From a virus (Duplodnaviria > Caudoviricetes), in IMG/VR virus record IMGVR_UViG_3300026442_000101: 64,000 nt of DNA; one strand, given 5' to 3'. This document shows positions 14,460 through 60,991 of the stretch, one piece after another (position 1 is the first letter of the stretch; every line of letters starts with the position of its first letter). The position numbers and the translations under genes were made by a program. The notes under the pieces were generated by a model, which searched no databases, was not told where the DNA came from, and saw only the letters and a program-made list of their open reading frames with translations.

Positions 14460-15134
14460 ATGGCTGGTAATCCCACCGTAACGCAAACCCAACAGTACCT
14501 CAACACCCTCGGCTTCAACTGCGGGATCGCTGACGGTATCTGGGGTAAGAACTCTCAAGGAGCCCTCGATCAACTCAAAGCCTCGGCTATCGACGCTTCT
14601 CATCCATACGGCGTGAAGAAGCTAGGTTGGGGTAAGAAGCTGAACGATGCTGAGATCGCCAAGGTAGCTCAGGTGGTCTCTAACCTGGGTCTTCCGAAGT
14701 CGATGATCATTGATCTCATGGCCTGCATGGCGTGGGAATCTGGTGAGTCGTTCAGTCCGTCGATCCGTAACCCCAAGTCAACTGCCACCGGCCTGATCCA
14801 GTTCATGGAAGCCACCGCAGTAGGTCTGGGTACCACCACCGCCAAACTGGCGAAGATGACGGTCATCGAGCAGCTGAACTACGTAGAGCGTTACTTCAAG
14901 CCCTACGCCAAGCGCCTGCAGAACCTGGGCGACCTGTACATGGGTATCATCTGGCCGGTCGGTATCGGCAAGCCTGATTCCTACGTCATGTGGAAATCCG
15001 GCGACAAGCAGTTCGAGCCGAACAAAGGTCTGGATGTCAACAACGACGGCCAGATCCTGCGTATCGAATGCCTGCACAAGGTCAACAACAAACTTGTGAA
15101 GGGCTTCCAGTCGCAGTTCGTCAAAGAACTCTGA
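14460..15134 (+). CDS. Modular endolysin: peptidoglycan-binding domain plus lysozyme/transglycosylase-like domain
   Basis: N-terminal QQYLNTLGFNCGIADGIWGKNS (PG_binding_1 pattern); catalytic WESG...PS.RNPKSTATGLIQFM; phiKZ gp144-like position. Confidence 0.9.
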   Translation: MAGNPTVTQTQQYLNTLGFNCGIADGIWGKNSQGALDQLKASAIDASHPYGVKKLGWGKKLNDAEIAKVAQVVSNLGLPKSMIIDLMACMAWESGESFSPSIRNPKSTATGLIQFMEATAVGLGTTTAKLAKMTVIEQLNYVERYFKPYAKRLQNLGDLYMGIIWPVGIGKPDSYVMWKSGDKQFEPNKGLDVNNDGQILRIECLHKVNNKLVKGFQSQFVKEL

Positions 15135-15135
15135 C

Positions 15136-15186
15136 AAAAAAAAAGAAAGCATAGAGCAGGTGGGTTTCCCCACCTGCTCCTTATGC
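15136..15186 (-). terminator. Rho-independent terminator with GCATA/TATGC outer stem
   Basis: gcata-gagcaggtggg-tttc-cccacctgctc-cttatgc; minus-strand tail CTTTCTTTTTTTTT. Confidence 0.85.
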
Positions 15187-15189
15187 CGC

Positions 15190-15876
15190 TTAGGCTTTCT
15201 GGTCGCGTAGACCTTTGTGCCATTCCATCGCAGATTCATGTGTGGTCACATGGAACTCGATCGGCATGAATGGCCAGCGCTCGGTGAACTCGTGGACCAG
15301 GTCACTGGCAAACTTCTCCTTATCGCCAATAACCAGCGTGCACGACGTGCCGCGATACTTCGTTTCCAACGACCATACACCGGCTTCGGTAGCCGTTTTC
15401 CAGATGCCGCAAATTTCCGGCTGATACTGGAGAGGGTTCTGGTGCACTAGTCGGTACATTCGCAGAGTGTACAGCGGGGTCAGGAACATCTTGGCAAAGA
15501 TCTTCTGACCTTGTGCGGTCAAGTCACCCAATTTCACGTCAGGGTAAACGTGATTGTAGTAACTGGTTGCAGGTTGTGGGAAAATCACCCTGACCATTTG
15601 CTTGGTAGCCAGAGCGATCACGCTGGCCAGTTCGGTGGGGAGGTTGGTCTCGCGGAAAGCGTTAATGCGTTCAGTTTGCGATGTCGCCTGATCGGCGGTC
15701 ACATGGATGAAGTGACTCCGATCGCTTTCGGATTTGTGTCGATCATGCACGTTCTTCTCATCACTGGTGGCTGCCAGTAGATGGGGTATATCGCTCACTT
15801 TATCGATCACAGTCTCCTGACCGAAAACTTCAAAGGTGAGTGGACCAGTCTGCAGGCTGGTGATTGGGTTTCGCAT
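15190..15876 (-). CDS. Hypothetical protein
   Basis: 228 aa with AAGGAG RBS. Confidence 0.6.
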   Translation of the reverse strand: MRNPITSLQTGPLTFEVFGQETVIDKVSDIPHLLAATSDEKNVHDRHKSESDRSHFIHVTADQATSQTERINAFRETNLPTELASVIALATKQMVRVIFPQPATSYYNHVYPDVKLGDLTAQGQKIFAKMFLTPLYTLRMYRLVHQNPLQYQPEICGIWKTATEAGVWSLETKYRGTSCTLVIGDKEKFASDLVHEFTERWPFMPIEFHVTTHESAMEWHKGLRDQKA

Positions 15877-15970
15877 GGTGTAGCTCCTTTTGTTGGCTGC
15901 TCGTGTTCTGCCTGGTAGGACTTACGAGGAGTCAGCGCGGTTAGTGCCCGTCGGAATGACGGGCTCCTAA

Positions 15971-16327
15971 TTACTTGTCGAAGAAGTAGAACTGACCATC
16001 GGCCAGGTGCTTCAACACCGCAACCACTTCGGCCTGAGCGAATGCGCATTCGAAGTGGAACGAGATGTAGTTGGCCAGGTTGGCGCAAAGATCACCTGGT
16101 ACTGGGTCAGGAAGTTCATCGACATCGTATTCGTGCTGGAGGTTAATTCTCACCTCCGGCATCGGAACAACTGCCATCTTCTGACACAGCTCCAGCTTGT
16201 AGCCGGCCTCGAGCATACTGTCGAGGACGCCTTCAGCTGCGATCTCGGTATCGAGGTCATCGTGGAACAGATCACCAATAGCCATGGTGACCGCGACCTG
16301 CAAACGTTGATTGAGCTTCTTGCGCAT
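15971..16327 (-). CDS. Hypothetical protein
   Basis: 118 aa acidic ORF abutting 16330; hairpin gcccgtc-ggaat-gacgggc (15946-15964) just downstream. Confidence 0.55.
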   Translation of the reverse strand: MRKKLNQRLQVAVTMAIGDLFHDDLDTEIAAEGVLDSMLEAGYKLELCQKMAVVPMPEVRINLQHEYDVDELPDPVPGDLCANLANYISFHFECAFAQAEVVAVLKHLADGQFYFFDK

Positions 16328-16329
16328 GG

Positions 16330-16950
16330 TTAGGCTACCTTGTGCTCGACGACTTCGCCGTCCAGGATTTTGTTGATGAACATCGCTTGATCTTTGATGA
16401 AGGAACAGAGGCGCAGCTCACGGTTCGCATTGGTCTGATGGCGAATGTAGCCAGCTACCGTGACCAGGTCATTCGGCGGGAACGACGGTTCGATGAAGTC
16501 AACAGAGCCGCTGATGAAGTCTGAGACGCTCGTATAGCGCGTCTGAGCAGCGTTCCACACCAAGGTCTGGTCTTTGTACACATCGCTGTAATCAGCGAAC
16601 ATGTGCGTGCTGGCGAGCCCTGCTGCGAGCAGCATAGCCACGTCCTCATCTAGCATGAGCGCGAATTGACTCATGAGGATCTGGTACTTGTCGTTGTTCG
16701 GCACGTAACCGTGACGATACGAATGGACGTAGCGGAACGCATCGCCGAAGCGCTCGAGATACTGATCCATCCCCATCAAGTATTCTTCGCTGTGGATGTG
16801 GTTATGCACCCGGATGTTCCGCTCACGCAAAGCGATCGCGTCATTGTGACTGTTGGTCTTTCTCAGACCCTGGATGCCTGCGGCTGCAAACCCCAAGCCA
16901 GCTGCGCCGATCACGCCCAACGCGATAGCCTGTTTGATTGAAAGAGCCAT
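16330..16950 (-). CDS. Hypothetical protein with N-terminal hydrophobic anchor
   Basis: 206 aa; AIALGVIGAAGLGFAAAGI; GGAGG RBS. Confidence 0.6.
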   Translation of the reverse strand: MALSIKQAIALGVIGAAGLGFAAAGIQGLRKTNSHNDAIALRERNIRVHNHIHSEEYLMGMDQYLERFGDAFRYVHSYRHGYVPNNDKYQILMSQFALMLDEDVAMLLAAGLASTHMFADYSDVYKDQTLVWNAAQTRYTSVSDFISGSVDFIEPSFPPNDLVTVAGYIRHQTNANRELRLCSFIKDQAMFINKILDGEVVEHKVA

Positions 16951-17276
16951 GTTGCCTCCGTGTTTTATTGTGAATCGGATCTACGCCGAAGCGATCGTCC
17001 GAGTATTTGTTTGCTGATGCCTGCCCAAAGGTCTTCACTATCGGGCGCTGGCACATCTGGGTATTTCGGATAAGTGGCGGCGATATCAATATCGCCATCA
17101 AAGTCTTTGTTCAGTCTCGTTTTCGAGAACTGCCCTTCAGATTCACCCCCTTGATCTCCGGAAAGTCCTTCGGGAGCATGAACGATGGGGAAATGAAGAA
17201 CCGTTGGGCCAAGGTCAGTGATTGTGATAGTGATTTCAAGGAGTCTTCAAGTAAGATGCTAGAATCGTTAGCCAGG

Positions 17277-17298
17277 GTAGGTGGGGAAACCCACCTAC
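17277..17298 (-). terminator. Hairpin at AAA gene stop
   Basis: gtaggtggg-gaaa-cccacctac overlapping the stop codon. Confidence 0.6.
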
Positions 17299-18395
17299 TC
17301 GGACTCCAGGGTGGCTTTGCCTTCTTCGCTCACCTTGGCCTTACGTTTACGGTTGCCGGTGCTCGAAAGGTTCTGGCTCCATGAACGCATGATAGTCATG
17401 GTGACCTCGTCGTTGAACTTCACGCGATACTTCACGCCGGTAGGGGTCGTGTGGATCACGGTAGCGCCGGGGTGGTTACGATCGAAGACGTAAGAACCGA
17501 TCATCTCCAGAGAGCCGTCCTGAATCAGGTCGATTTCCAGATGACCGTTGTCGTAACGCTCGATGACTTCACCGACGAAGGACTTGCCCTGGAACGCTAC
17601 GTCCACGACCGCCAGAGCTTGGTGTACAGGACCCGGAACGTTGAGGATCTTGATACGCTTGTTGAGATCCTTAGCAGCGGTAACGCGCTGTGCTTGACGA
17701 ACCAGGTACATCAGGATGTCGAAGCTCAGGTGATGAACAGACGCGTAGGCAACCAGGTATTCGGTAAGCTCCTCGTTGATGTCGTTGGAGCGGCAGACGT
17801 CCTTCACGATTTCGCTGGTCAGATCACCGTAGTCGATACGGAACATGAAGCGCCCAGGCCGATCGATCATGTATTCGTTGAGCTCCTTGTCTTCGTTGGC
17901 AGTGACCACGAACATGACGTTCTTGAGGTCAGAGTCAGAGAAGAGGGTCAGCATCGAATCTTTGGCAGACTTGCCATAGATCTTGCCGTACTCATCGAAG
18001 TAGACCATGCACGAGCCGATCAGGCCGATGACCGCTTTGAGCAGACCAGGCGGCAGCTCGTTGTTGATCAGCAGGACAGGCATCTCGAGATCGAGACACT
18101 TGTTACCCAGGTGTTCAGCCAGCAGGGATTTGCCAGAACCCTTCAGACCTTTGAGCAACACGCCGGTAGAGCACTGACGTTCTTCAAAGGCTTCCATGAT
18201 TGCCGACAGGTTATCCTGGTGATCACCGTAGATCTTGCTCGGCAGGCTGAAGCGCTTACGGTCACGGACGAGATCCAGGCCATCTTCAGTGAGGTTGATG
18301 CGATAGACAGCTGGTGGAATCTTTTCCACCCGGCCGACTTCTGGAACGTTACGAGCCGATACGTGAGAACCGTGATCGAAGAATTGCAGACCCAT
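17295..18395 (-). CDS. AAA-family ATPase
   Basis: Walker A GLKGSGKS, Walker B VYFDEYGK, sensor VTAN, arginine finger DRPGRF. Confidence 0.9.
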   Translation of the reverse strand: MGLQFFDHGSHVSARNVPEVGRVEKIPPAVYRINLTEDGLDLVRDRKRFSLPSKIYGDHQDNLSAIMEAFEERQCSTGVLLKGLKGSGKSLLAEHLGNKCLDLEMPVLLINNELPPGLLKAVIGLIGSCMVYFDEYGKIYGKSAKDSMLTLFSDSDLKNVMFVVTANEDKELNEYMIDRPGRFMFRIDYGDLTSEIVKDVCRSNDINEELTEYLVAYASVHHLSFDILMYLVRQAQRVTAAKDLNKRIKILNVPGPVHQALAVVDVAFQGKSFVGEVIERYDNGHLEIDLIQDGSLEMIGSYVFDRNHPGATVIHTTPTGVKYRVKFNDEVTMTIMRSWSQNLSSTGNRKRKAKVSEEGKATLESE

Positions 18396-29462: not shown

Positions 29463-31343
29463 TTACAACTGTGCCATTGCCAGAATGAACGCCTCTTTGC
29501 GGGCGGCAAACGGCAGCACTTCTACCAGACGGTTGTCAGACGTCGACAACAGCAGCCGGCCTTTCTGAGGAGCTGGCAAGACCTCGTCCAGGCGGCTGTA
29601 CAGTTTCCGGATCTCGAGGAACAGCGCGTTGTTCGCCGATGGCTCGATCACCAGACCTTCTTTGGATTCCAGCAGTTGCAGACCCAGGCCGATGTCGTCC
29701 AGGGTGTGGTCTACCGAAATGATTGCAGCGAAGTCGATGAAGACTGCTGCGTTGACGTTGGTTGCTTCGCCAATCAGGTCGCCAGCCAGCGCGGCCAGAT
29801 CTTCTTTGACGATGTGACAGCAGGCGATGTCGGAAACGAAGTGCATGCGCTTGGCGAATGCAGCTGCTTCTTCAGCGCCACGACGATCACGGAACGCCGC
29901 CAGCAACTTGCCGTAGCTGGTCGCGAAGTTCAGCTTGGCGATGTCGAACTGGAACTGGTAGGTGGAAGCACGAATGGTGTTGACCGAGAACCGGCGGTTC
30001 AGGTTTTCCCACAGCGGCTTCTCGAACTCCGGCTTGAGCTTCATCAACAGATCAGAAGCTTCGGTCAGAGTGGCCGCAGCATGCACCTGGTTGATCAGAT
30101 CCAGCTGGCTCTCGTCACGCAGCAGCACCGGCGTACGCAGGATGTGCAGGTCGATACGAGGCTGACCTTCGTCGCTTACCATCTTCACTTGGCTTTCGAA
30201 CACGGCGCCCTGGATGCTGTCGATGGTATCGGCTTTACCCAGGGTCATTTGTTCTTCAGGGATTTCGCGCAGGATCTCGGCCAGGCGCACAGTCTTGCTA
30301 CGTTGTTCGATACGGCTGTTGGTTACGCCGTCTTCACGGTTGGCCAGGCTGATACCTGCGGACAGGGTACGTGGCTTGGCATCGGGTTCACGGGTTTCTT
30401 CACGCAGGCTGTGGGCCATGTGGCGGTTGTCGTCGTTCACTTCTACGAGCTCCTCGCGGACTTCGCCGCGTTCATTCATGACGTAATACTTGATGTGGGT
30501 ATTGACGTCATAGACCGTTGGGATGGTGGAAAGGATGTCTTCGCCATTACCAGTCAGCTTCCACTTGGTAACGCTGGCAGCTTGGTAATGGTACTCGCCT
30601 ACCCAGTAATCGTCGTACGGGTTGGCTTTAGTGTAGTCAGGACCCTGGATGACAAAGCCTGGATCCTCACGGCGCGGGGCCTGTTCGGTGTGGTGATATT
30701 CAGGACGCTCTTCACGAGCTGTACGTTCTTCACGTTCAGGCTCGCGACGATCATCATCCTCACGACGATCGTCGTCATTGTGGCCGGTATCGGCTAACCA
30801 ATGAGCACTGTCGTCGGAACCGCGATCGCGGCCTCGCGATCCGCCAGACCGTCGATCATCTCGGCGACTATCACGAGAATCACGACGATCATCACGATCA
30901 CGACCGCGGCCACGATAGTCCCGATCATCATTCTCGCGTGAGCGTTCGCGGCGAGACCCTTCCACCATTTCTTGAGCATCGGCACGGGCGTCCTTCATCT
31001 CGTTGTAAATGGCGTCACTCAGATCCCGTGATACACGACTATCGCTAAGCACCAGCTCAGCGAAATGACCATCGACGACGATCTCAACCGTCTTGTCGAT
31101 GATATCGGCTTCACTATCACCGCGATCGCCGTACTTACGATCAACACGATCGTAGGCTCCGACGATGCCATCTACCAGTTCATTGAAGTTTCGGTTTTCC
31201 CAACGACGATCGCTGAGTTGGTCTGCGTAGCTACGACGCAGATCCAACATCAAGTCGTCGCGGATATCCCGGGATTTCGCCTGTGCGTTGATGTAGCGAA
31301 TCGCTGCATCAGCACAATCGTCCCAGAAACGATCTCCACTCAT
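29463..31343 (-). CDS. Conserved jumbo-phage protein with long R/D-rich low-complexity segment
   Basis: 626 aa directly downstream of nvRNAP beta-N; residues about 130-215 are RD/RS/RG-rich. Confidence 0.65.
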   Translation of the reverse strand: MSGDRFWDDCADAAIRYINAQAKSRDIRDDLMLDLRRSYADQLSDRRWENRNFNELVDGIVGAYDRVDRKYGDRGDSEADIIDKTVEIVVDGHFAELVLSDSRVSRDLSDAIYNEMKDARADAQEMVEGSRRERSRENDDRDYRGRGRDRDDRRDSRDSRRDDRRSGGSRGRDRGSDDSAHWLADTGHNDDDRREDDDRREPEREERTAREERPEYHHTEQAPRREDPGFVIQGPDYTKANPYDDYWVGEYHYQAASVTKWKLTGNGEDILSTIPTVYDVNTHIKYYVMNERGEVREELVEVNDDNRHMAHSLREETREPDAKPRTLSAGISLANREDGVTNSRIEQRSKTVRLAEILREIPEEQMTLGKADTIDSIQGAVFESQVKMVSDEGQPRIDLHILRTPVLLRDESQLDLINQVHAAATLTEASDLLMKLKPEFEKPLWENLNRRFSVNTIRASTYQFQFDIAKLNFATSYGKLLAAFRDRRGAEEAAAFAKRMHFVSDIACCHIVKEDLAALAGDLIGEATNVNAAVFIDFAAIISVDHTLDDIGLGLQLLESKEGLVIEPSANNALFLEIRKLYSRLDEVLPAPQKGRLLLSTSDNRLVEVLPFAARKEAFILAMAQL

Positions 31344-53949: not shown

Positions 53950-53986
53950 CAGCATACAGCCCCGGCGCGAGCCGGGGCTGTATGTC
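53950..53986. terminator. Bidirectional terminator with GCATA/TATG flanks
   Basis: gcatacagccccggc-gcga-gccggggctgtatg. Confidence 0.85.
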
Positions 53987-53994
53987 GCTTGGGA

Positions 53995-54519
53995 TTAACC
54001 CTCGGCGTCGAAGCCGTCCAGGTCAGTCACGGAAGCTGCTTCGTTCAGAGGAACGTCAGCGTCCGGTACGGACAGAACAGCAGCGAAGGTGCCGGTGTAC
54101 AGCAGGCTGCCAGCGTCGGCAACAACATCGGCCGAACCGTTGGTGTCTTCGTCAACCGGGCGAACGATGTTCGACAGGCTGATTTCCGATTCGATCAGAC
54201 CCAGCGCGGTAGCGACCTTGGTCAGGACCTGTGCGTCGGTATCGCCTTCAGCGATGACCACAGGGATGGCCTTGGCAGTAGCGATACCTTCGCCAGCAGT
54301 CAGCGCCCGACGGGTGTAGCTGAAGGTCTGGGTGCCGCTGAAGCCTTGGTTGTCGACAGCGGTGTAGGTGATGCTGGTGTTGCGACCACCAGTGCCAGCT
54401 TCGCTGACAACCGAGCCAGGAGTGATCTGGGCGGCGGTAGCGTTCAGGCTGGGGTTAGCAGCGTTGATCAGTGCCAGGACGTTAGCCGCGGCAGTGATGG
54501 CGATATTGACTTTAGCCAT
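53995..54519 (-). CDS. YxRxD family member on opposite strand, probably high-copy
   Basis: SYTRRAL; SLLYTG; ends VTDLDGFDAEG; strong codon bias. Confidence 0.65.
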   Translation of the reverse strand: MAKVNIAITAAANVLALINAANPSLNATAAQITPGSVVSEAGTGGRNTSITYTAVDNQGFSGTQTFSYTRRALTAGEGIATAKAIPVVIAEGDTDAQVLTKVATALGLIESEISLSNIVRPVDEDTNGSADVVADAGSLLYTGTFAAVLSVPDADVPLNEAASVTDLDGFDAEG

Positions 54520-54570
54520 GATGTTGAACCCTTCATGTTTGCGGTTAGGGACAGTCCTAACATAGCATCA

Positions 54571-54620
54571 GCGGCATAAGCCCCTACACCAGAGCCGTGA
54601 AGCCTGGTGTAGGGGAATGC
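54571..54620 (-). terminator. Hairpin closing ncRNA candidate A
   Basis: cccctacaccag...ctggtgtagggg 12-bp stem with gcata/aatgc flanks. Confidence 0.75.
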
Positions 54621-55242
54621 TCAAGGATCAGAAAGGCAACTACCCGACAATGGATACCTGGGGAGGAGATGCGCGGCTGCTACGCGCTCCATCGTCGTTA
54701 GGTCGACCAAGACTTTTGTCGCCCTTATCTCCGTTTCAGTGAGGTCAATACCCACCCATCAGATCGCCTATAATAGACGTGCACATCCATTACAAGCATC
54801 TGAAGGCTGCGTACTACGAGCCGCGTTGGTCGGCAGTCCATTTCCGTCTTTTACGATCATCGCTTCAGCCCACTGGACTGCGGGTCGAACCCGGAGCAGC
54901 GGTCCACTAGACCGACGGAGCGTGACGGCGTACCACGATTAACTGCCAAGCGCGAACATCGTGCAACAACTTGAGTACTCCTTGAAGCGTTGGCGTGCTT
55001 AACGAGTCCCCCGTACCCTTCGAAACTCTAATCACCGGCCAGGGGTCAGAGAGTCTCTCATATACTCCAATAGTCCAGGGTGAGGTTATTGGAGATGCCC
55101 TAAGGCATATCAAACACAAGAGTGTTTCACGCCATGTTTAACGTCTTGCGATCATCAGTGATAAGACGATCAGAGGACCAGCTGCCTTAGACAGTCAGGC
55201 GGCCAGCGAGGGAGTCCGGGATGCGCGGCTGGTCCTCTGATA
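54620..55242 (-). ncRNA. Large structured ncRNA candidate A (about 620 nt; strand tentative)
   Basis: No credible ORF; at least nine stems seen by eye; 12-nt direct repeat at 54668 and 55220. Confidence 0.55.
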
Positions 55243-55263
55243 TAATACTTTCATGTTTCGTAA

Positions 55264-55971
55264 TTATTCACGGATAGTTCGCACCATGTACTCGTTGGTC
55301 ATCTTGATGACGTTACCTAACTTAGTAGCCGCGTTGATGCGCTGGCAGAACTCTTTGAGGATCGGTCCACCGGACTGGGATTTACAGTTGAAGGTCAGTT
55401 GGATCATGCCGGCGAAGATACGGACTTCGATAAGCGGCACCGGCAGCAGGGTGGCTTGGATCACCTTGCCGTCGATATCGGTACGATATAGCACGTAATG
55501 GTAATCGAGATCACGAGTGCTATCAAGTACGACTTGGTTGATGCCGTAGAGGGCTTGCCGTATCGCATCACGATCGGCAGTGTCGGTGTCGTTAAACACT
55601 ACGCTGATACTTCCGCCAGTATCCTCACCACCAACCGAGACTACCTGCATACGCAGCAGGGCGTTAATGACATCACGATTGGCTTTGAGGTGATCCATGC
55701 TCGAGTCGAACTGTAACGCAGTGATCGCTAAGCTCGTGTCCACGCGGCGTGGTACGTTCTGTTCCTTGATGACGATCTCGACTTTACTGCCATCAAGGCT
55801 AGTCCAGTTACGGATATCCTCGCCAACGAGGTTGCGCTCTGCACGCAGATCCTCGCTGGTGATCTTAACCTCGTGACCGTACTCCTGCATCAGAGCACGC
55901 TCGATGATTGCCATGACGTGACTTTTACCGACGCCGGTCGAACCTTTAACGATGACTTCGAGCTTTTCCAT
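55264..55971 (-). CDS. Hypothetical protein with N-terminal P-loop-like motif
   Basis: VIVKGSTGVGKSHV; no clear Walker B. Confidence 0.6.
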   Translation of the reverse strand: MEKLEVIVKGSTGVGKSHVMAIIERALMQEYGHEVKITSEDLRAERNLVGEDIRNWTSLDGSKVEIVIKEQNVPRRVDTSLAITALQFDSSMDHLKANRDVINALLRMQVVSVGGEDTGGSISVVFNDTDTADRDAIRQALYGINQVVLDSTRDLDYHYVLYRTDIDGKVIQATLLPVPLIEVRIFAGMIQLTFNCKSQSGGPILKEFCQRINAATKLGNVIKMTNEYMVRTIRE

Positions 55972-56341
55972 TGGCTGCGATCTCTCTTTTGATGTATGAC
56001 CATTTGTTCATGATGCCCGCCGCAGCGCCGAGCGCTACGTCATGACAATCATTGTATTCAAACGCTACCTCCCTGAGACCAGGTCGTAGGGCTCCGACCT
56101 GCTTGTCGTCACGCTTAGCTTCGAGGACGACACAGTAGACCTCGTGTTTGACGAGGTGCGCCACGTACCGGGCAGCGTCACGCCACAGCTTGTTAGGGAC
56201 ATCATGGCAGGTCATCTTACGGACCTCATTGAGATAACCCTCAACCTTTAAGATGAGGACGTATTCGTCGCCAAGGAGTCGAAGTAAGTCTCGAGGTATT
56301 TGATGCCGCACACAGTCCAGCAGAAATGCTTCCAGTTCCAT
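55946..56341 (-). CDS. Hypothetical protein
   Basis: 131 aa; GGAGGT RBS. Confidence 0.6.
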   Translation of the reverse strand: MELEAFLLDCVRHQIPRDLLRLLGDEYVLILKVEGYLNEVRKMTCHDVPNKLWRDAARYVAHLVKHEVYCVVLEAKRDDKQVGALRPGLREVAFEYNDCHDVALGAAAGIMNKWSYIKREIAANGKARSHR

Positions 56342-56394
56342 GACGACCTCCGTTTATTCATTACATAGCCGTCATTGTTAAATGTATACGAACG

Positions 56395-56660
56395 GCATAA
56401 AGACCCGGCCGAAGCCGGGCATCTTGATCTTCATGTTGCCCGTCGTTGTACATGCGCATCCGGCTAGAGGCAGCGAACCGCCCGATAGGTTTCAGCTACA
56501 AGCATTGATAGGCGCGTTCAGCCTCAGGAAGAACGCTAAGGGGTGGCGTTGCCGCCATTGGGGTTCCATTCCTCAGGGAGCTGGACGAAACGGACGTCCT
56601 TACTGTGAGTTCAAGATCTAAATTGTGAAAGAGCTCAGAGAACAACTTGTGAGGGCATTC
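56395..56660 (-). ncRNA. Structured ncRNA candidate B (about 250 nt) with UUCG terminator hairpin
   Basis: Minus-strand GCAA and UUCG tetraloop hairpins; closing stem atcttga/tcaagat. Confidence 0.55.
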
Positions 56661-56698
56661 TCTACATAGTATATTGACATCATCCGTAAGTATTCACG

Positions 56699-56748
56699 CA
56701 AAAAAAAAAGAAAGTAGCACAGCCCGGCTTTCGCCGGGCTGTATGCTG
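56699..56748 (-). terminator. Terminator with CTTTCTTTTTTTTTT tail
   Basis: gca-cagcccggc-tttc-gccgggctg-tatgc. Confidence 0.85.
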
Positions 56749-57072
56749 TCAGTCTTTGCGACGTCTGAAGGATGTGATTGCTTTCTTGATGTAGGAGAGG
56801 TTCTTGATCTCGGAATACGGGACCGAGTTCTGCCGACAGAAATCTCTGTAGGCGATCAACTCCTCCATCTTCGAAAGCTGCACGTAGTGACTGATCTCAC
56901 CATCGGGTAGATAGTGGCGGATATAGATCATGTCGTCCTTGTGCTTACTTGGGTCAGCAGCTTCCCAGATGAGTCGCTCCTTACCGTGGATCGTATCTAC
57001 GAAGAGGTGGACGACAGTGCCGTCCTCATCCCCGTAGTGATCCTGACTGTGCTTGATGTACGGCTGTGTCAC
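56749..57072 (-). CDS. Hypothetical protein
   Basis: 107 aa, GTG start overlapping upstream stop. Confidence 0.55.
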   Translation of the reverse strand: MTQPYIKHSQDHYGDEDGTVVHLFVDTIHGKERLIWEAADPSKHKDDMIYIRHYLPDGEISHYVQLSKMEELIAYRDFCRQNSVPYSEIKNLSYIKKAITSFRRRKD

Positions 57073-57374
57073 GTAACTACCTCGTAGACTTTGTTGTACA
57101 GATCACGGATCTCCTTGAGGACCCGATCGCGATCACCTTTGTAGTCATGCGAGATGATTGTCTGCATGAGCCACGCTTCTGCCGCAGTGAGCTTGCGCTC
57201 GATATCTGCGATCTTCTCCAGGATCTTCTTGTGAAGAAACTCGATCTCCTCATCGATCTTCTTCTTATCCGCCTCGGTCCGAGGAGTTGGTTTGTATCGC
57301 TGGTAAGCTGCGTAACCTCCACCAGTGATCACGCCAGCTGCTATCAGAGCGGCTACTAACTTTGCTGCGTTCAC
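57069..57374 (-). CDS. Membrane-anchored coiled-coil protein
   Basis: GGAGGT RBS with GTG start; AALIAAGVITGGGYAAYQ. Confidence 0.6.
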   Translation of the reverse strand: MNAAKLVAALIAAGVITGGGYAAYQRYKPTPRTEADKKKIDEEIEFLHKKILEKIADIERKLTAAEAWLMQTIISHDYKGDRDRVLKEIRDLYNKVYEVVT

Positions 57375-57383
57375 GGTTACCTC

Positions 57384-57722
57384 CTAGCCTACATTAGGCA
57401 TGACGATAAGTTTGATGACCTTCAGCTGATCCTGGATGCTCTCCAGTTCGGTAGGCGACAATTTGTCGAGTTCGCCCGTGGTGCTCTGGACAGTCAGCTT
57501 AGCAAGGAAATCTACCTGGACATCGCTCAGCAAACCGCTGCCATTCAGGTTGACGAACAGGCTGATCATCTGAAGATCCACAATGATCGAAGTGACTTTC
57601 ATCTTGGCGAGAGTTCTGTCTTCGCTTTCCTTTGTAGCTTTGATGGACTTGTAGGCTGCGTAACCCAGACCACCAACGATTGCACCCAGAGCAGCGATAC
57701 GGACGATATTACCAAAGTTCAT
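57384..57722 (-). CDS. Membrane-anchored protein
   Basis: GAGGAGGT RBS; IAALGAIVGGLGYAAYK. Confidence 0.65.
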   Translation of the reverse strand: MNFGNIVRIAALGAIVGGLGYAAYKSIKATKESEDRTLAKMKVTSIIVDLQMISLFVNLNGSGLLSDVQVDFLAKLTVQSTTGELDKLSPTELESIQDQLKVIKLIVMPNVG

Positions 57723-57760
57723 TGCGCGACCTCCTCGGTCATTGAGATTGTTCATCGCGA

Positions 57761-57778
57761 CAATGTGTGACTGAAAAA
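57761..57778 (-). promoter_or_regulatory. Phage promoter motif copy 4 (TTTTTCAGTCACACATTG)
   Basis: 40 nt upstream of 57722. Confidence 0.55.
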
Positions 57779-57787
57779 TAGTTAAAT

Positions 57788-57836
57788 GCGGCATATACCC
57801 CACCACCGGCGGAGCGACCGGTGGTGGGGATCTATG
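57788..57836 (-). terminator. Hairpin closing ncRNA candidate C
   Basis: ccccaccaccggc-ggagc-gaccggtggtgggg with gcata/tatg flanks. Confidence 0.75.
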
Positions 57837-57844
57837 TTGGTTCA

Positions 57845-58060
57845 CACTTGGGGCTGAGTGGTCACCCCACAGAGTTCGGCTTGTCCTCACGACGCTGAAC
57901 TCTGCAGGCTGTGCACTCTAGGCACTAGCTAGACTCCGACGGACCCGCGACCGTCGTAGCCTAAGGTCGGAGAGGACTCCCGACCACGGTGATCCAACGA
58001 TGGGAGTGTGCACACCGTTGGATTAAACTGAATCCATTCGCCCGAAATAATTCAGTCTAA
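57845..58060 (-). ncRNA. Six-hairpin ncRNA candidate C (strand tentative)
   Basis: Adjacent stems at 57849-57869, 57870-57904, 57919-57963, 57965-57985, 57992-58023 and 58027-58056. Confidence 0.55.
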
Positions 58061-58078
58061 CATATAATACATCACATG

Positions 58079-58495
58079 TCACCAGTTGAACATCTTACTC
58101 CTCTCCGATGCATTAGCCTCGACAGTGTATTCGTCGAAAGGCTTGGCATTTGCGTATGCACGTTTAGCTGTAGGGAGGAACCCTGCGGCTTTGTATGCGC
58201 GGATGCTTGAAGCATTCTTCGGTTCGATCCAGGCTCTCATGCGCTTACCTTGACGAAATGCGCGAATGAAGTCTGCTGCCACACCTTTACCCCGATATTC
58301 GGGGAGGATGTAAATAGAGCCTGTCCGCCAGTAGCCGTCCGGCTCTTGGAATGGTACAGAGAATCCCACGACCTTCCCCTCGAAGTACAAGGGTTCGATA
58401 TTTTCCATGTGGTTCTTAAGTGCGGCAGGGCCTAAGAATGGATCCTTCAAGGCTTTGTCCACGAGCGCTTTAAGCTCAGGTGTTATAGTCGCCAT
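58079..58495 (-). CDS. GNAT-family acetyltransferase
   Basis: IYILPEYRGKGVA (acetyl-CoA loop) and NASSIRAYKAAGF. Confidence 0.85.
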   Translation of the reverse strand: MATITPELKALVDKALKDPFLGPAALKNHMENIEPLYFEGKVVGFSVPFQEPDGYWRTGSIYILPEYRGKGVAADFIRAFRQGKRMRAWIEPKNASSIRAYKAAGFLPTAKRAYANAKPFDEYTVEANASERSKMFNW

Positions 58496-58551
58496 GATCC
58501 TACTCTCAATATACTTGACCATACGATAAGTTTTAACGAACACCCCCTATA

Positions 58552-58595
58552 CAAAAAAAGAAAGCACACCAGGGCCTTGCGGCCCTGATGTGTTT
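58552..58595 (-). terminator. Terminator with CTTTCTTTTTTT tail
   Basis: cagggcc-ttgc-ggccctg. Confidence 0.75.
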
Positions 58596-58599
58596 AGTC

Positions 58600-58926
58600 T
58601 TACTTGATCACGCTAAGAGTCGGTGGGTGCGAACTCTTTCGGAACCATGCTGTCCACGCCGCTTTGAAGGACGGAAATCGGTCCTTGGTTACCTTACGGC
58701 CAAAGCGGTCAGTCAGCACATAACCAGCATCATCCAGTTGGTTGAGCAACCAGGCGACACCATGACTCGCGCCAGCATTATAAATGTTCACTTCTTCTGG
58801 CGTGTCGATGATTTCGGTGATGTTATCGCCGACGTCTGCGATCTTACCTCGGAAGCCGTGAACAAGCGCAGCCGCAGACTCTGCTCGGTAAGCGTCCCAC
58901 ATGAGTTCTTCAAGCGGAGATTTCAT
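58600..58926 (-). CDS. Hypothetical protein
   Basis: 108 aa; TGATG overlap with upstream gene. Confidence 0.55.
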   Translation of the reverse strand: MKSPLEELMWDAYRAESAAALVHGFRGKIADVGDNITEIIDTPEEVNIYNAGASHGVAWLLNQLDDAGYVLTDRFGRKVTKDRFPSFKAAWTAWFRKSSHPPTLSVIK

Positions 58927-60239
58927 CAGTCTTCCTCAGAATCGACTTGATCAGTGGTGGTCAGATGGGTTAGCCAGCGGCAAAGATTGTGCTGCACATC
59001 TTCGTCACTCAACTGACTGGTCAGACGACCGGTCATACACATCGGAATGCTGATGGTCGGCATCAGGCCGCGATCGATCAGGTGGACATTCATCACCCCA
59101 TGTCGAGTACAGTTCACCGATACGCCAGTGATGTATTCGGCGAACTCGCAGATTGCGTTACGCATCTCTTCCATGAGACGCTCCATGACCTTCTGTGCGA
59201 TCTCATCACCGTAAGGGACGCCGATGGTATCCATCAAGGTGGTGAAATGCGGGATGAAAGTCGCGCCGTTATACACGACGTTGAGCGTGTCGAGGTTGAG
59301 TTCGGACATCGTCGACAGAGTCGCGCGGTAGATGCGGTTGAGGATGTGTCGATATTCCGGATCCGAAGCTTCGATAGTTTCATCGAACGACTTCACGATG
59401 ATCTCCGGCCCGAAGGTGGTTGGGATGCCACTGAAAATCCTGACCAACTCACCGAACGTAACGTAACCGTCCGAAGCGAACTGCGTATCGCGACTGAGCC
59501 TGTCGAGGAACATGACGTGACTGAGTGGTCGAGTTTCCGTCGCGTAACTCATCTGCTCCAAGGTATCATGAGGAGCTGCGTCGAGGTCGAACTCTTTCGC
59601 AACACCGTCGTATGCCCGCAGGATCTCGTCCAGCCATTCTCTCGAAGACTCGGTGAGTACCGGCACCAGTCGCACCGTAGTCGGAACGCCAGTCAGGTTG
59701 AGTGCAGGGCTACCTATCCGAGTGTGTGCTCCTAACACCGCCTCGGAGATCGTACGGTTGATGAGGTCGCCCGGACGAAGGCTGTAGAGTCTCTCATCGA
59801 TGCGATGAGTCGGCGGGACGACGTGGTCATCAGTGATCGTCTGCACGAGAGGACCATGCGGTGTGTTGAGCTGACGATAGGTAGTCACGCGGTCGAAGTA
59901 CAGCTTGGCATCGTGATCGACCAACCCACCCATGCTGACGACACTGGCGTCTTCAGTGAAGCCCGTAACGACAGCAGTCTGCTTACCGAACCCTGGACCA
60001 CCGACATTGCTCTCCATGGTCAGGGTGAACGCGTAGCGCGGTTGATCGTTGCCGCCCGGGATGGTGACTTCCCGCCCGTCGCGCAATGAGATCGACAGAG
60101 CGTCGTCGATCAGTTCGTCACGTTGGATATGACAACGCATACCTGGAGTGAGAATCGGATAAGCGACCAGCTTTGGAACTGGGCTCAGCTGGCGGAAGTT
60201 GATGGAGACAGCATCGTAGGTTTCGATCTGAATATGCAT
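58926..60239 (-). CDS. Divergent homologue of nvRNAP promoter-specificity (sigma-like) subunit, phiKZ gp68 family
   Basis: Motif order V.IP.G...R..F.L / GFT / D....YF / LRP.D / W.L..IL.AY matches my recollection of gp68-family proteins; needs a profile search. Confidence 0.55.
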   Translation of the reverse strand: MHIQIETYDAVSINFRQLSPVPKLVAYPILTPGMRCHIQRDELIDDALSISLRDGREVTIPGGNDQPRYAFTLTMESNVGGPGFGKQTAVVTGFTEDASVVSMGGLVDHDAKLYFDRVTTYRQLNTPHGPLVQTITDDHVVPPTHRIDERLYSLRPGDLINRTISEAVLGAHTRIGSPALNLTGVPTTVRLVPVLTESSREWLDEILRAYDGVAKEFDLDAAPHDTLEQMSYATETRPLSHVMFLDRLSRDTQFASDGYVTFGELVRIFSGIPTTFGPEIIVKSFDETIEASDPEYRHILNRIYRATLSTMSELNLDTLNVVYNGATFIPHFTTLMDTIGVPYGDEIAQKVMERLMEEMRNAICEFAEYITGVSVNCTRHGVMNVHLIDRGLMPTISIPMCMTGRLTSQLSDEDVQHNLCRWLTHLTTTDQVDSEED

Positions 60240-60250
60240 TATAAAGCTCC

Positions 60251-60280
60251 GGCATAAGTGGGGCGGTTTCCCGCCCCTAA
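60251..60280 (-). terminator. Hairpin with gcata flank
   Basis: ggggcgg-tttc-ccgcccc. Confidence 0.7.
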
Positions 60281-60285
60281 TTAGA

Positions 60286-60870
60286 TTACATGTTGTCGAT
60301 CAGGCGGCGTTGTTCGGCGAGCTCATCGCCGAATACATCAAGATACATTTTCGGATATCGCGCATAGCCAGCCGCTGCACCAAACTTCTCTTTGATGTGC
60401 TCGATCGCAGGCTTCATCGCTTCGTTGCGACTCATCCCTTGATTCATGCGATACAGCACAGCGCGTTCAACCATCAAACCGATGTTCCCTGGTAACTCTC
60501 GATCAGCTGAAGCCATCAGCTCCGCGAACATACTCGGATACCCGCCCTCGTACGACGCTCGGTGATACTGACATCCAAGCGCCACCTGTTCTCGATCGGT
60601 GATATCCAACTCAGTGATCATCTTGTAATCAGTGCTGCGCACCCACTCAGCGCTCAGCAGATGGTGGTTGTGTCGCTGATGAGCAAACATATCGTGGAAG
60701 TGCGCGACCAGCATGATCAGCTTGGGATCATACCCCAACCCTAACCGATCGTTGATTACATTCCCGCACAATTCAACCCGAGTGAAATGATCTACTCGAT
60801 GCGCTTTGTCATTGACTTCCCACGCCTTGGTGAAGTCTTCGATAACCTTGTTTCTTAATTCATCAAGCAT
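60286..60870 (-). CDS. HD-domain phosphohydrolase
   Basis: H..DH..RV, AHFHD, H, YHR, ADR metal ligands; AAGGA RBS before ATG 60870. Confidence 0.85.
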   Translation of the reverse strand: MLDELRNKVIEDFTKAWEVNDKAHRVDHFTRVELCGNVINDRLGLGYDPKLIMLVAHFHDMFAHQRHNHHLLSAEWVRSTDYKMITELDITDREQVALGCQYHRASYEGGYPSMFAELMASADRELPGNIGLMVERAVLYRMNQGMSRNEAMKPAIEHIKEKFGAAAGYARYPKMYLDVFGDELAEQRRLIDNM

Positions 60871-60991
60871 TGCGTTATCCTTTCGGATGTTGTTGTTCAT
60901 GACTACAATGTAGTATTCAAATTCGTTTGACTGCGCGATACCAATTTTATGTCAACTCTTTCTTTCACCACAGATAAATTCGGAGTCATCT

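Follow-up and report, generated by a model that had tools for sequence, protein, structure and literature searches.

Three gene-free gaps interrupt one part of a divergent phage genome, and the locus raises the question of what they encode and what reads them. We addressed this in a 64,000-nucleotide (nt) stretch of viral DNA (IMG/VR record IMGVR_UViG_3300026442_000101; hereafter the window), in which the genes of the 54-61 kb region are all encoded on the minus strand and the gaps occupy 54520-55263 (A), 56342-56748 (B) and 57732-58078 (C). An original prediction made from the DNA letters described the gaps as candidate RNA genes sharing a 5' motif, and put forward as one hypothesis that this motif is a dedicated promoter class read by a sigma-like specificity subunit encoded nearby. 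We favour, with a probability of roughly 0.6, an account in which A, B and C would be three independent stable-RNA genes, each beginning at a rare extended form of the phage TATG start, transcribed by the regular phage polymerase and closed by the phage's standard hairpin end (Table 1).

Comparison among relatives provided evidence that gaps B and C encode structured RNAs. In an alignment of seven RNA B sequences, 96.2% of the cells were paired, against 29-45% when the partners were slid, and double changes were seen at 13 of 30 pairs (0-4 when slid), a figure equalled by none of 500 shuffles. With 12 sequences the core of RNA B still showed 94.8% of cells paired versus 23-49% when slid, with up to five pair types per position. 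RNA C behaved similarly across eight sequences: 93.9% of cells were paired over 46 predicted pairs (32-44% when slid), and 24 of the 46 pairs had double changes (1-6 when slid; 0 of 500 shuffles equal). No open reading frame (ORF) was conserved in the gaps, the ORFs present shifting in frame, strand and length among relatives, so that B and C combine compensatory changes with the lack of a conserved ORF. Judged by this comparison, B and C represent two new families of structured RNA, around 210-280 nt long, in a clade of chimalliviruses, and the strong covariation in both bears out the proposal of real RNA genes in the three regions. RNA B measured 201-268 nt in the first seven relatives. Against shuffled sequences the fold z scores were -4.5 for A, -1.9 for B (flanks included) and -6.0 for C. 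The Rfam 15 families, including hammerhead, GOLLD, ROOL, 6S, transfer-messenger RNA (tmRNA) and RNase P, gave no match at the gathering score anywhere in the window, and at E <= 10 only chance-level matches were found in 54400-58200. We built covariance models of the conserved cores of C (R1) and B (R2); neither found additional copies in the window, and by these models A, B and C are mutually unrelated.

RNA A has weaker comparative support than B and C. It is present, in synteny, in the window and two contigs (L003 and L008) only, and 28 of its 203 predicted pairs survive changes on both sides among these three sequences. Its 5' 200 nt are nearly invariant, whereas its centre is variable or replaced between close relatives; the terminal hairpin is kept in L008 with a different sequence. 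Two resemblances within A were not borne out. The tRNA-like appearance of its centre was rejected by ARAGORN, which detected no tRNA or tmRNA in the gaps, and a hammerhead-like core seen by eye (CUGAUGA ... GAAA ... GUU, 55108-55163, minus strand) had no Rfam hammerhead match even at E <= 10 on a 131-nt slice, with none in 55070-55200. Covariation cannot test the latter segment because the region is invariant in the three relatives.

The behaviour of A lends something to a different view, namely that the gaps act at the DNA level, as sites of replication, packaging or recombination, or are what is left of lost, decaying genes: A is located where more distant relatives have a gene for a 336-amino-acid (aa) protein, and its centre is the part exchanged between close relatives. 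A tblastn search with the 336-aa protein, however, found no signal in A, which rules out a decayed copy of that gene. Moreover, pairing on a single strand is maintained by compensatory changes across highly diverged sequences, conservation of the gaps exceeds that of the adjacent genes, and promoter-like and terminator-like signals flank each gap on the same strand. We therefore regard an origin of the gaps in DNA sites or gene debris as highly improbable.

Conservation of the locus was examined in syntenic metagenomic contigs reached through its 437-aa protein and its HD protein (L003/L004, L008, L009, L010, L012, L013 and L014). Their genes follow one preserved succession: HD, the 437-aa gene, GNAT, gap C, two to three small genes, gap B, further genes and DUF7941. 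Across these contigs the 437-aa protein falls to 16-42% identity. Between the window and L003, nucleotide identity was 91% for C and 90% for B, compared with 54-89% for the flanking genes. An IMG/VR pattern scan filtered by R2 gave six further jumbo-sized contigs with B (L082/L091, L042, L079, L047 and L037), and in those with enough flank (L082/L091, L042, L037 and L079) R1 detected C 1.5-2.6 kb upstream of B on the same strand, the match in L079 being weak (13.9 bits, E 0.03). In all, B and C are retained in at least 12 syntenic jumbo-phage contigs. The GNAT gene lies directly upstream of C in L003, L008, L082, L042, L037 and L079. In L009, L010, L012, L013 and L014 the gene at that position has a weak or faint GNAT score at best (none in L010 and L013), and most of these five contigs carry an extra gene of 165-168 aa before C. 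Searches of IMG/VR with exact 20-24-mers from A and C, and with the 437-aa protein, returned no match, and a metagenome scan with the B pattern returned at least 120 matches, none of which passed the B covariance model.

Beyond metagenomes, R1 matched the cultured Pseudomonas aeruginosa phage pPa_SNUABM_DT01 (DT01) at 262608-262750, within an unannotated 513-nt gap. The weak R2 matches in DT01 (E 0.07 and 0.6) were set aside, and the two models gave no match in Noxifer or phiKZ, which is not proof of absence there. We also observed that the C-like RNA of DT01 (262318-262760; L019 7319-7760) has a B-like 5' block (GTTCTTTCACAA after TATG TAGGAC) and a C-type long hairpin at its end, and thus may combine B and C or resemble their ancestor.

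Each RNA is preceded by a promoter-like sequence. The original prediction noticed a shared minus-strand motif immediately before the first stems of A and C, with a looser version before B, and this part of it held: GTATTATAT occurs in two exact copies in the 64 kb against 0.05 expected, a number reached by none of 100 shuffles, and B has TATACTATG. The best form of the shared motif is TATNNTAT(G/C), and the 'CATG' that had been counted as part of it is not conserved in relatives. At the equivalent position of RNA A, L003 has GTAATATAT plus C. RNA C is preceded in every relative by ATTATATG or a close variant, B by ACTATG, TTATATG or CCTATG, and A by T(A/T)TATATC, and the element conserved across all relatives is TATNNTATG. 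TATG stands at the 5' edge of 18 of the 19 copies of B and C examined in relatives (the exception is B of L014, with ACTG), and also in DT01 and Noxifer. TATNNTATG is present three times in the window, heading B, C and the GNAT gene; in around 250 kb of relatives' loci it was found only at the starts of B and C and before GNAT, the latter in the window's subgroup, whereas chance would give about three per 64 kb. The motif had also been described as different from the promoters of neighbouring protein genes. It is indeed rare, unlike the motifs that precede most protein genes, and distinct from another repeated element of this phage, AGTGATACATT, but it is not confined to RNA genes, as a copy (TATCGTATG) heads the GNAT protein gene.

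The complete genome of DT01 carries seven copies of TATNNTATG, all on the coding strand, and four of them head non-coding RNA or tRNA units. Besides the two whose units are described in Table 1, one heading copy stands before a 180-nt gap and one lies 300 nt before tRNA-Asn and tRNA-Asp; the other three fall within coding sequence and appear to be random. One copy in Noxifer stands at the head of a 130-nt unit that closes with a matching hairpin-TATGCCG end. From these distributions the motif is best read as a rare signal concentrated at, and not exclusive to, stable-RNA genes. Early promoters of jumbo phages, those used by the virion RNA polymerase, carry a conserved AT-rich stretch of about 10 nt around -10 and stand ahead of many early protein operons. 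The motif is AT-rich but too rare for a general promoter of this kind: DT01 has seven copies, four of them at RNA or tRNA units, versus around 32 early promoters in phiKZ, although the early-gene region of the window phage lay outside the search.

Some of the units headed by the motif elsewhere have features of their own. The DT01 unit at 119631-119930 (L021 832-1130) is a predicted RNA of around 290 nt that has T-run terminators of its own at either side. Its sequence is strongly biased to purines and full of GGA triplets, which recalls the protein-sponge RNAs of the RsmY/RsmZ type. Two small units are headed by TATTGTATG: that of Noxifer (211548-211700; L029 548-700) contains CAGGAGGUGAUCCAG, and that of DT01 (from 229893; L023 893-1050) contains GAGGGGGUGAUCCAG. 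Both sequences can pair over an extended length with the 16S rRNA 3' end, and neither unit has an ORF after it at a distance that could be used. These small units may be ribosome-directed small RNAs.

At their 3' ends, the three RNAs finish in a GC-rich hairpin followed by TATGCCG. The window has 21 copies of the heptamer TATGCYG where 11 would be expected, and most of them directly follow a GC hairpin. Many belong to a palindrome, CAGCATA-hairpin-TATGCTG, and a pair of convergent genes has one copy between them (53950-53956). The combination of GC hairpin and TATGCYG was found at around 16 sites between 2265 and 60256, at most of which it stands in for the usual long U-run. We take a hairpin plus (T)TATGCYG to be the terminator signature that this phage uses in general, and not one peculiar to the RNAs; TATGCYG may in addition double as the TATG start of the next operon. 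The element AGTGATACATT is a separate, third motif, with three exact minus-strand copies (34276, 32509 and 18456) and a variant at 57769. Two of the three copies lie 25-30 nt past a hairpin-TATGCTG and 35-60 nt ahead of a start codon, and relatives retain GT(A/G)ATACATTGT at the equivalent place after RNA C. It is probably another promoter or leader element.

A start signal, a structured RNA and a terminator in the 5' region of a gene is also the architecture described in phiKZ (PMC10914365; PMC11512511), and the gaps might be long structured 5' leaders of the downstream operons, with conditional or premature terminators that control the amount of polymerase passing into the genes behind them. 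The short RNA would then be a by-product or a cis-regulator, as has been suggested for RNA species located in 5' untranslated regions of phiKZ and 201phi2-1. The distance from the end of the RNA to the next start codon is short (55-75 nt), and the sequence from hairpin to next gene is conserved too. Set against this, the first downstream gene changes among relatives while the RNA is kept: after C it encodes 115 aa in the window and 286 aa in L009, and the gene next to B encodes 131 aa or a P-loop protein or, in L079, nearly directly adjoining, DUF7941. In addition, 200-660 nt with many covarying helices is well beyond the needs of a terminator switch, and the units that this motif heads in DT01 include one with tRNAs and one with a T-run terminator of its own. 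We consider a leader function unlikely, yet the strongest of the alternatives.

As to what reads the motif, the original prediction pointed to the gene at 58926-60239 as gp68-like, its product being the sigma-like subunit that would drive an RNA-based module from GTATTATAT promoters. Two observations agree with that idea: the few copies of the motif cluster at RNA genes, and the gene lies within 1-5 kb of the RNAs in most relatives. The protein itself does not fit. Its sole PHROG match was phrog_3141, which the homologues of relatives also matched (3e-9 to 6e-13) and of which phiKZ gp69 is the prototype (2.7e-179), whereas phiKZ gp68 matches phrog_3209 (5e-183). A profile of seven homologues aligned by hhalign to gp69 with 96.4% probability (E = 1.4e-9, 373 columns) and to gp68 with 0.09%. 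A sequence search of the PDB with the 437-aa protein found no match, though nvRNAP (non-virion RNA polymerase) structures that contain gp68 have been published, and the AlphaFold2 model was too poor for a fold search (predicted local distance difference test score 45). By PHROG assignment and hhalign alike the 437-aa protein is not gp68-like, and by sequence family it belongs to Imp1/PicA, implicated in nuclear import. Imp1 is an import factor at the nuclear shell (bioRxiv 10.1101/2024.03.27.586873; PMC13282480). Genes 68 and 69 are adjacent in phiKZ, and this may be the source of the mix-up.

The polymerase biology of phiKZ also counts against the sigma-like model. The late promoter of its nvRNAP is TATG, with the G at +1 (PMC7598289; PMC12809450); TATG is read by gp123, the beta-like subunit, and gp68 is an integral, non-exchangeable subunit (PMC12809450). 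The motif contains TATG, which the standard nvRNAP reads, so no extra factor is needed. Co-occurrence of the RNAs and the gene, which had been suggested as a check, proved uninformative or negative: the gene is a core gene of chimalliviruses in a conserved locus, while L012 has RNA C without a gene of the 437-aa type between HD and GNAT, and the C-like RNA of DT01 adjoins an unrelated 526-aa gene. Only synteny is demonstrated as a link between Imp1/PicA and the RNAs. With a protein gene, that of GNAT, also headed by the motif, the sigma-like subunit model is already largely refuted by these comparisons, and we give it hardly any credence.

Under the account that we prefer, each of the three units would start at a rare AT-rich variant of TATG, TATNNTATG, with transcription beginning at the G and the ordinary nvRNAP as the likely reader. 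The unit would end at a GC hairpin followed by UAUGCYG, after which the next operon would begin. B and C belong to a conserved core module in the order Imp1, GNAT, RNA C, two to three small genes, RNA B, P-loop NTPase and DUF7941 virion genes. The RNAs would most likely work in trans, binding proteins or serving as scaffolds, perhaps together with the GNAT or P-loop proteins encoded beside them. More speculatively, TATNNTATG could mark a dedicated 'stable-RNA regulon' of a clade of nucleus-forming jumbo phages, in which B and C are ribonucleoprotein subunits with their constant neighbours, the GNAT protein and the P-loop NTPase, acting at the phage nucleus or on host translation. The sister RNAs of DT01 and Noxifer would be directed to ribosomes by 13 nt complementary to the 3' end of 16S rRNA, or to regulators of the RsmA type by tracts rich in GGA; we hold this wider scheme to be doubtful.

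Several points weigh against the account of three stable-RNA genes. The predicted start of RNA A is TATC and not TATG, and B alone folds just modestly better than shuffles (z -1.9, again with flanks). RNA starts and ends are predictions from the DNA letters, and the trans-acting, protein-binding role, which we find most likely, is purely inferred. The assignment of the polymerase and the timing follow phiKZ by analogy. Since a tRNA of 201phi2-1 is transcribed from a 'middle' promoter (PMC11512511), this promoter class might be a middle and not a late one. Finally, 24 soil metatranscriptome runs contain the whole stretch, but in contigs of up to 237 kb and at flat depth, so that DNA carry-over is possible and transcription unproven; in three of four runs the depth was flat over the whole stretch, and neither transcription nor RNA ends were visible.

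A separate observation came from run X1, in which the assembly breaks inside RNA A and unitigs at 54895-54985 reach a depth of 15,000-18,000, compared with around 145 in the flanking 40-kb contigs. These roughly 90 nt of the variable centre of A could correspond to an RNA of very high abundance or have words in common with one; this is a single observation.

Table 1. Positions of the RNAs, their flanking signals and neighbouring genes in the window, and of motif copies in the DT01 genome
Feature	Coordinates	Strand	Remark
RNA A, ~660 nt	54579-55239	-	Predicted multi-helix fold; 5' and 3' thirds conserved, centre variable
RNA A 5' motif, GTATTATAT then C	55240-55248	-	Directly before first stem; promoter-like, without the G of TATG
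RNA A 3' end, GC hairpin (54581-54615) then TATGCCG (54572-54578)	54572-54615	-	Terminator signature
RNA B, ~266 nt	56400-56665	-	Conserved core 56511-56639; covariation
RNA B 5' motif, TATACTATG	56665-56673	-	Putative start at G 56665
RNA B 3' end, GC hairpin and TATGCCG	56393-56419	-	Terminator signature
RNA C, ~266 nt	57796-58061	-	Conserved core 57850-57992, including a 17-pair hairpin
RNA C 5' motif, GTATTATATG (GTATTATAT at 58062-58070)	58061-58070	-	Putative start at G 58061
RNA C 3' end, 12-pair GC hairpin (57798-57829) and TATGCCG	57789-57829	-	Terminator signature
Same motif class before GNAT gene, TATCGTATG	58520-58528	-	Motif search
P-loop NTPase, 235 aa	55264-55971	-	First gene after RNA B in most relatives; homologue follows B in L082
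Intrinsic terminator (hairpin and T-run) of upstream three-gene operon	56718-56743	-	~45 nt before B motif
GNAT acetyltransferase	58079-58495	-	Pfam PF00583 and PF13508
Imp1/PicA-family protein (phiKZ gp69 family), 437 aa	58926-60239	-	phrog_3141, E = 5.5e-18
HD-type phosphohydrolase	60286-60900	-	phrog_3921, E = 4e-51; tblastn matches annotated HD domain proteins of jumbo phages
DT01 motif copy, TATAGTATG	262318-262326		Heads C-like RNA
DT01 motif copy, TATAGTATG	G at 119639		Heads 400-nt gap with purine-rich RNA closed by its own terminator
DT01 motif copy, TATTGTATG	G at 229901
DT01 motif copy, TATGGTATG	G at 171056

Protein matches indicate that the window belongs to a divergent phiKZ-like, nucleus-forming jumbo phage (chimallivirus). 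Its SNF2 helicase is 38-42% identical to the counterparts of LucasX, DT01, Noxifer and the Erwinia RAY group, and its HD hydrolase is 50% identical to the versions of Noxifer and DT01. The window also encodes a major head protein of the phiKZ type, virion proteins with DUF7941, phiKZ_IP-type genes, a DNA polymerase and a DnaB-like helicase. Searches against cultured phages with the nucleotide sequence of the locus, and at the protein level with the locus and the 437-aa protein, gave no match. The GNAT gene and the HD-type hydrolase that had been named as neighbours of the RNAs are both present. Upstream of B, the layout of an operon terminator ahead of the motif is common to all relatives with B, and a further intrinsic terminator (58565-58592) precedes the motif of the GNAT gene. 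Elsewhere in the window (29463-31343, minus strand), the ORF immediately downstream of the gene for the DNA polymerase encodes 626 aa and had no PHROG match; going by position, its product may be a highly divergent form of the nuclear shell protein, chimallin. In two relatives, GIY-YIG homing-endonuclease genes split the reading frame of the SNF2 helicase (L010, 7130-7873; L014, 7102-7902).

Nucleus-building jumbo phages must pass RNA and protein through a protein shell, and their non-coding RNAs have so far been short, poorly characterised candidates. B and C are conserved among phages whose proteins are 16-40% identical, in a core locus beside a putative import factor, and the C-like homologue in a cultured P. 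aeruginosa phage opens these RNAs to mapping, deletion and knock-down. Recognising the 437-aa protein as an Imp1/PicA relative also averts a false lead on exchangeable sigma-like factors.

Among known systems, GOLLD and ROOL are large structured phage-associated RNAs represented in Rfam. RNA A is similar to them as a structured phage RNA of 600-700 nt, and differs in having no Rfam match and in being limited to three close relatives. Closer in setting are the non-coding RNA candidates reported from 5' untranslated and intergenic regions of phiKZ and 201phi2-1 by ONT-cappable-seq (PMC10914365; PMC11512511). Like B and C, these combine a phage start with a hairpin terminator just upstream of a gene, and some are positionally conserved among related giant phages. 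They are mostly shorter than 250 nt and come from transcriptomics without covariation analysis, whereas B and C are known from comparative structure alone, are clustered in one module with changing downstream genes, and have no counterpart in phiKZ detected by the covariance models. With phiKZ gp68 the 437-aa protein shares a size range only, without sequence or profile similarity. With Imp1/PicA (phiKZ gp69, PhiPA3 gp63 and 201phi2-1 gp125), which selectively imports proteins into the phage nucleus, it shares the PHROG family and the long profile alignment, though it is around 120 residues shorter than gp69 and only about 14% identical to it, and its function is assigned by this sequence relationship. 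The likeness to the phiKZ nvRNAP late promoter lies in the TATG directly before the first helix of B and C and of their relatives, and TATGCYG, which stands after hairpins ahead of many protein genes, contains TATG as well; A, with TATC, departs from it. No conserved upstream element is known for the phiKZ late promoter, whereas the motif described here has an extra TAT two bases upstream that yields a 9-mer nearly absent elsewhere, and TATNNTATG offers a testable answer to what, beyond the four bases of TATG, makes a strong nvRNAP promoter.

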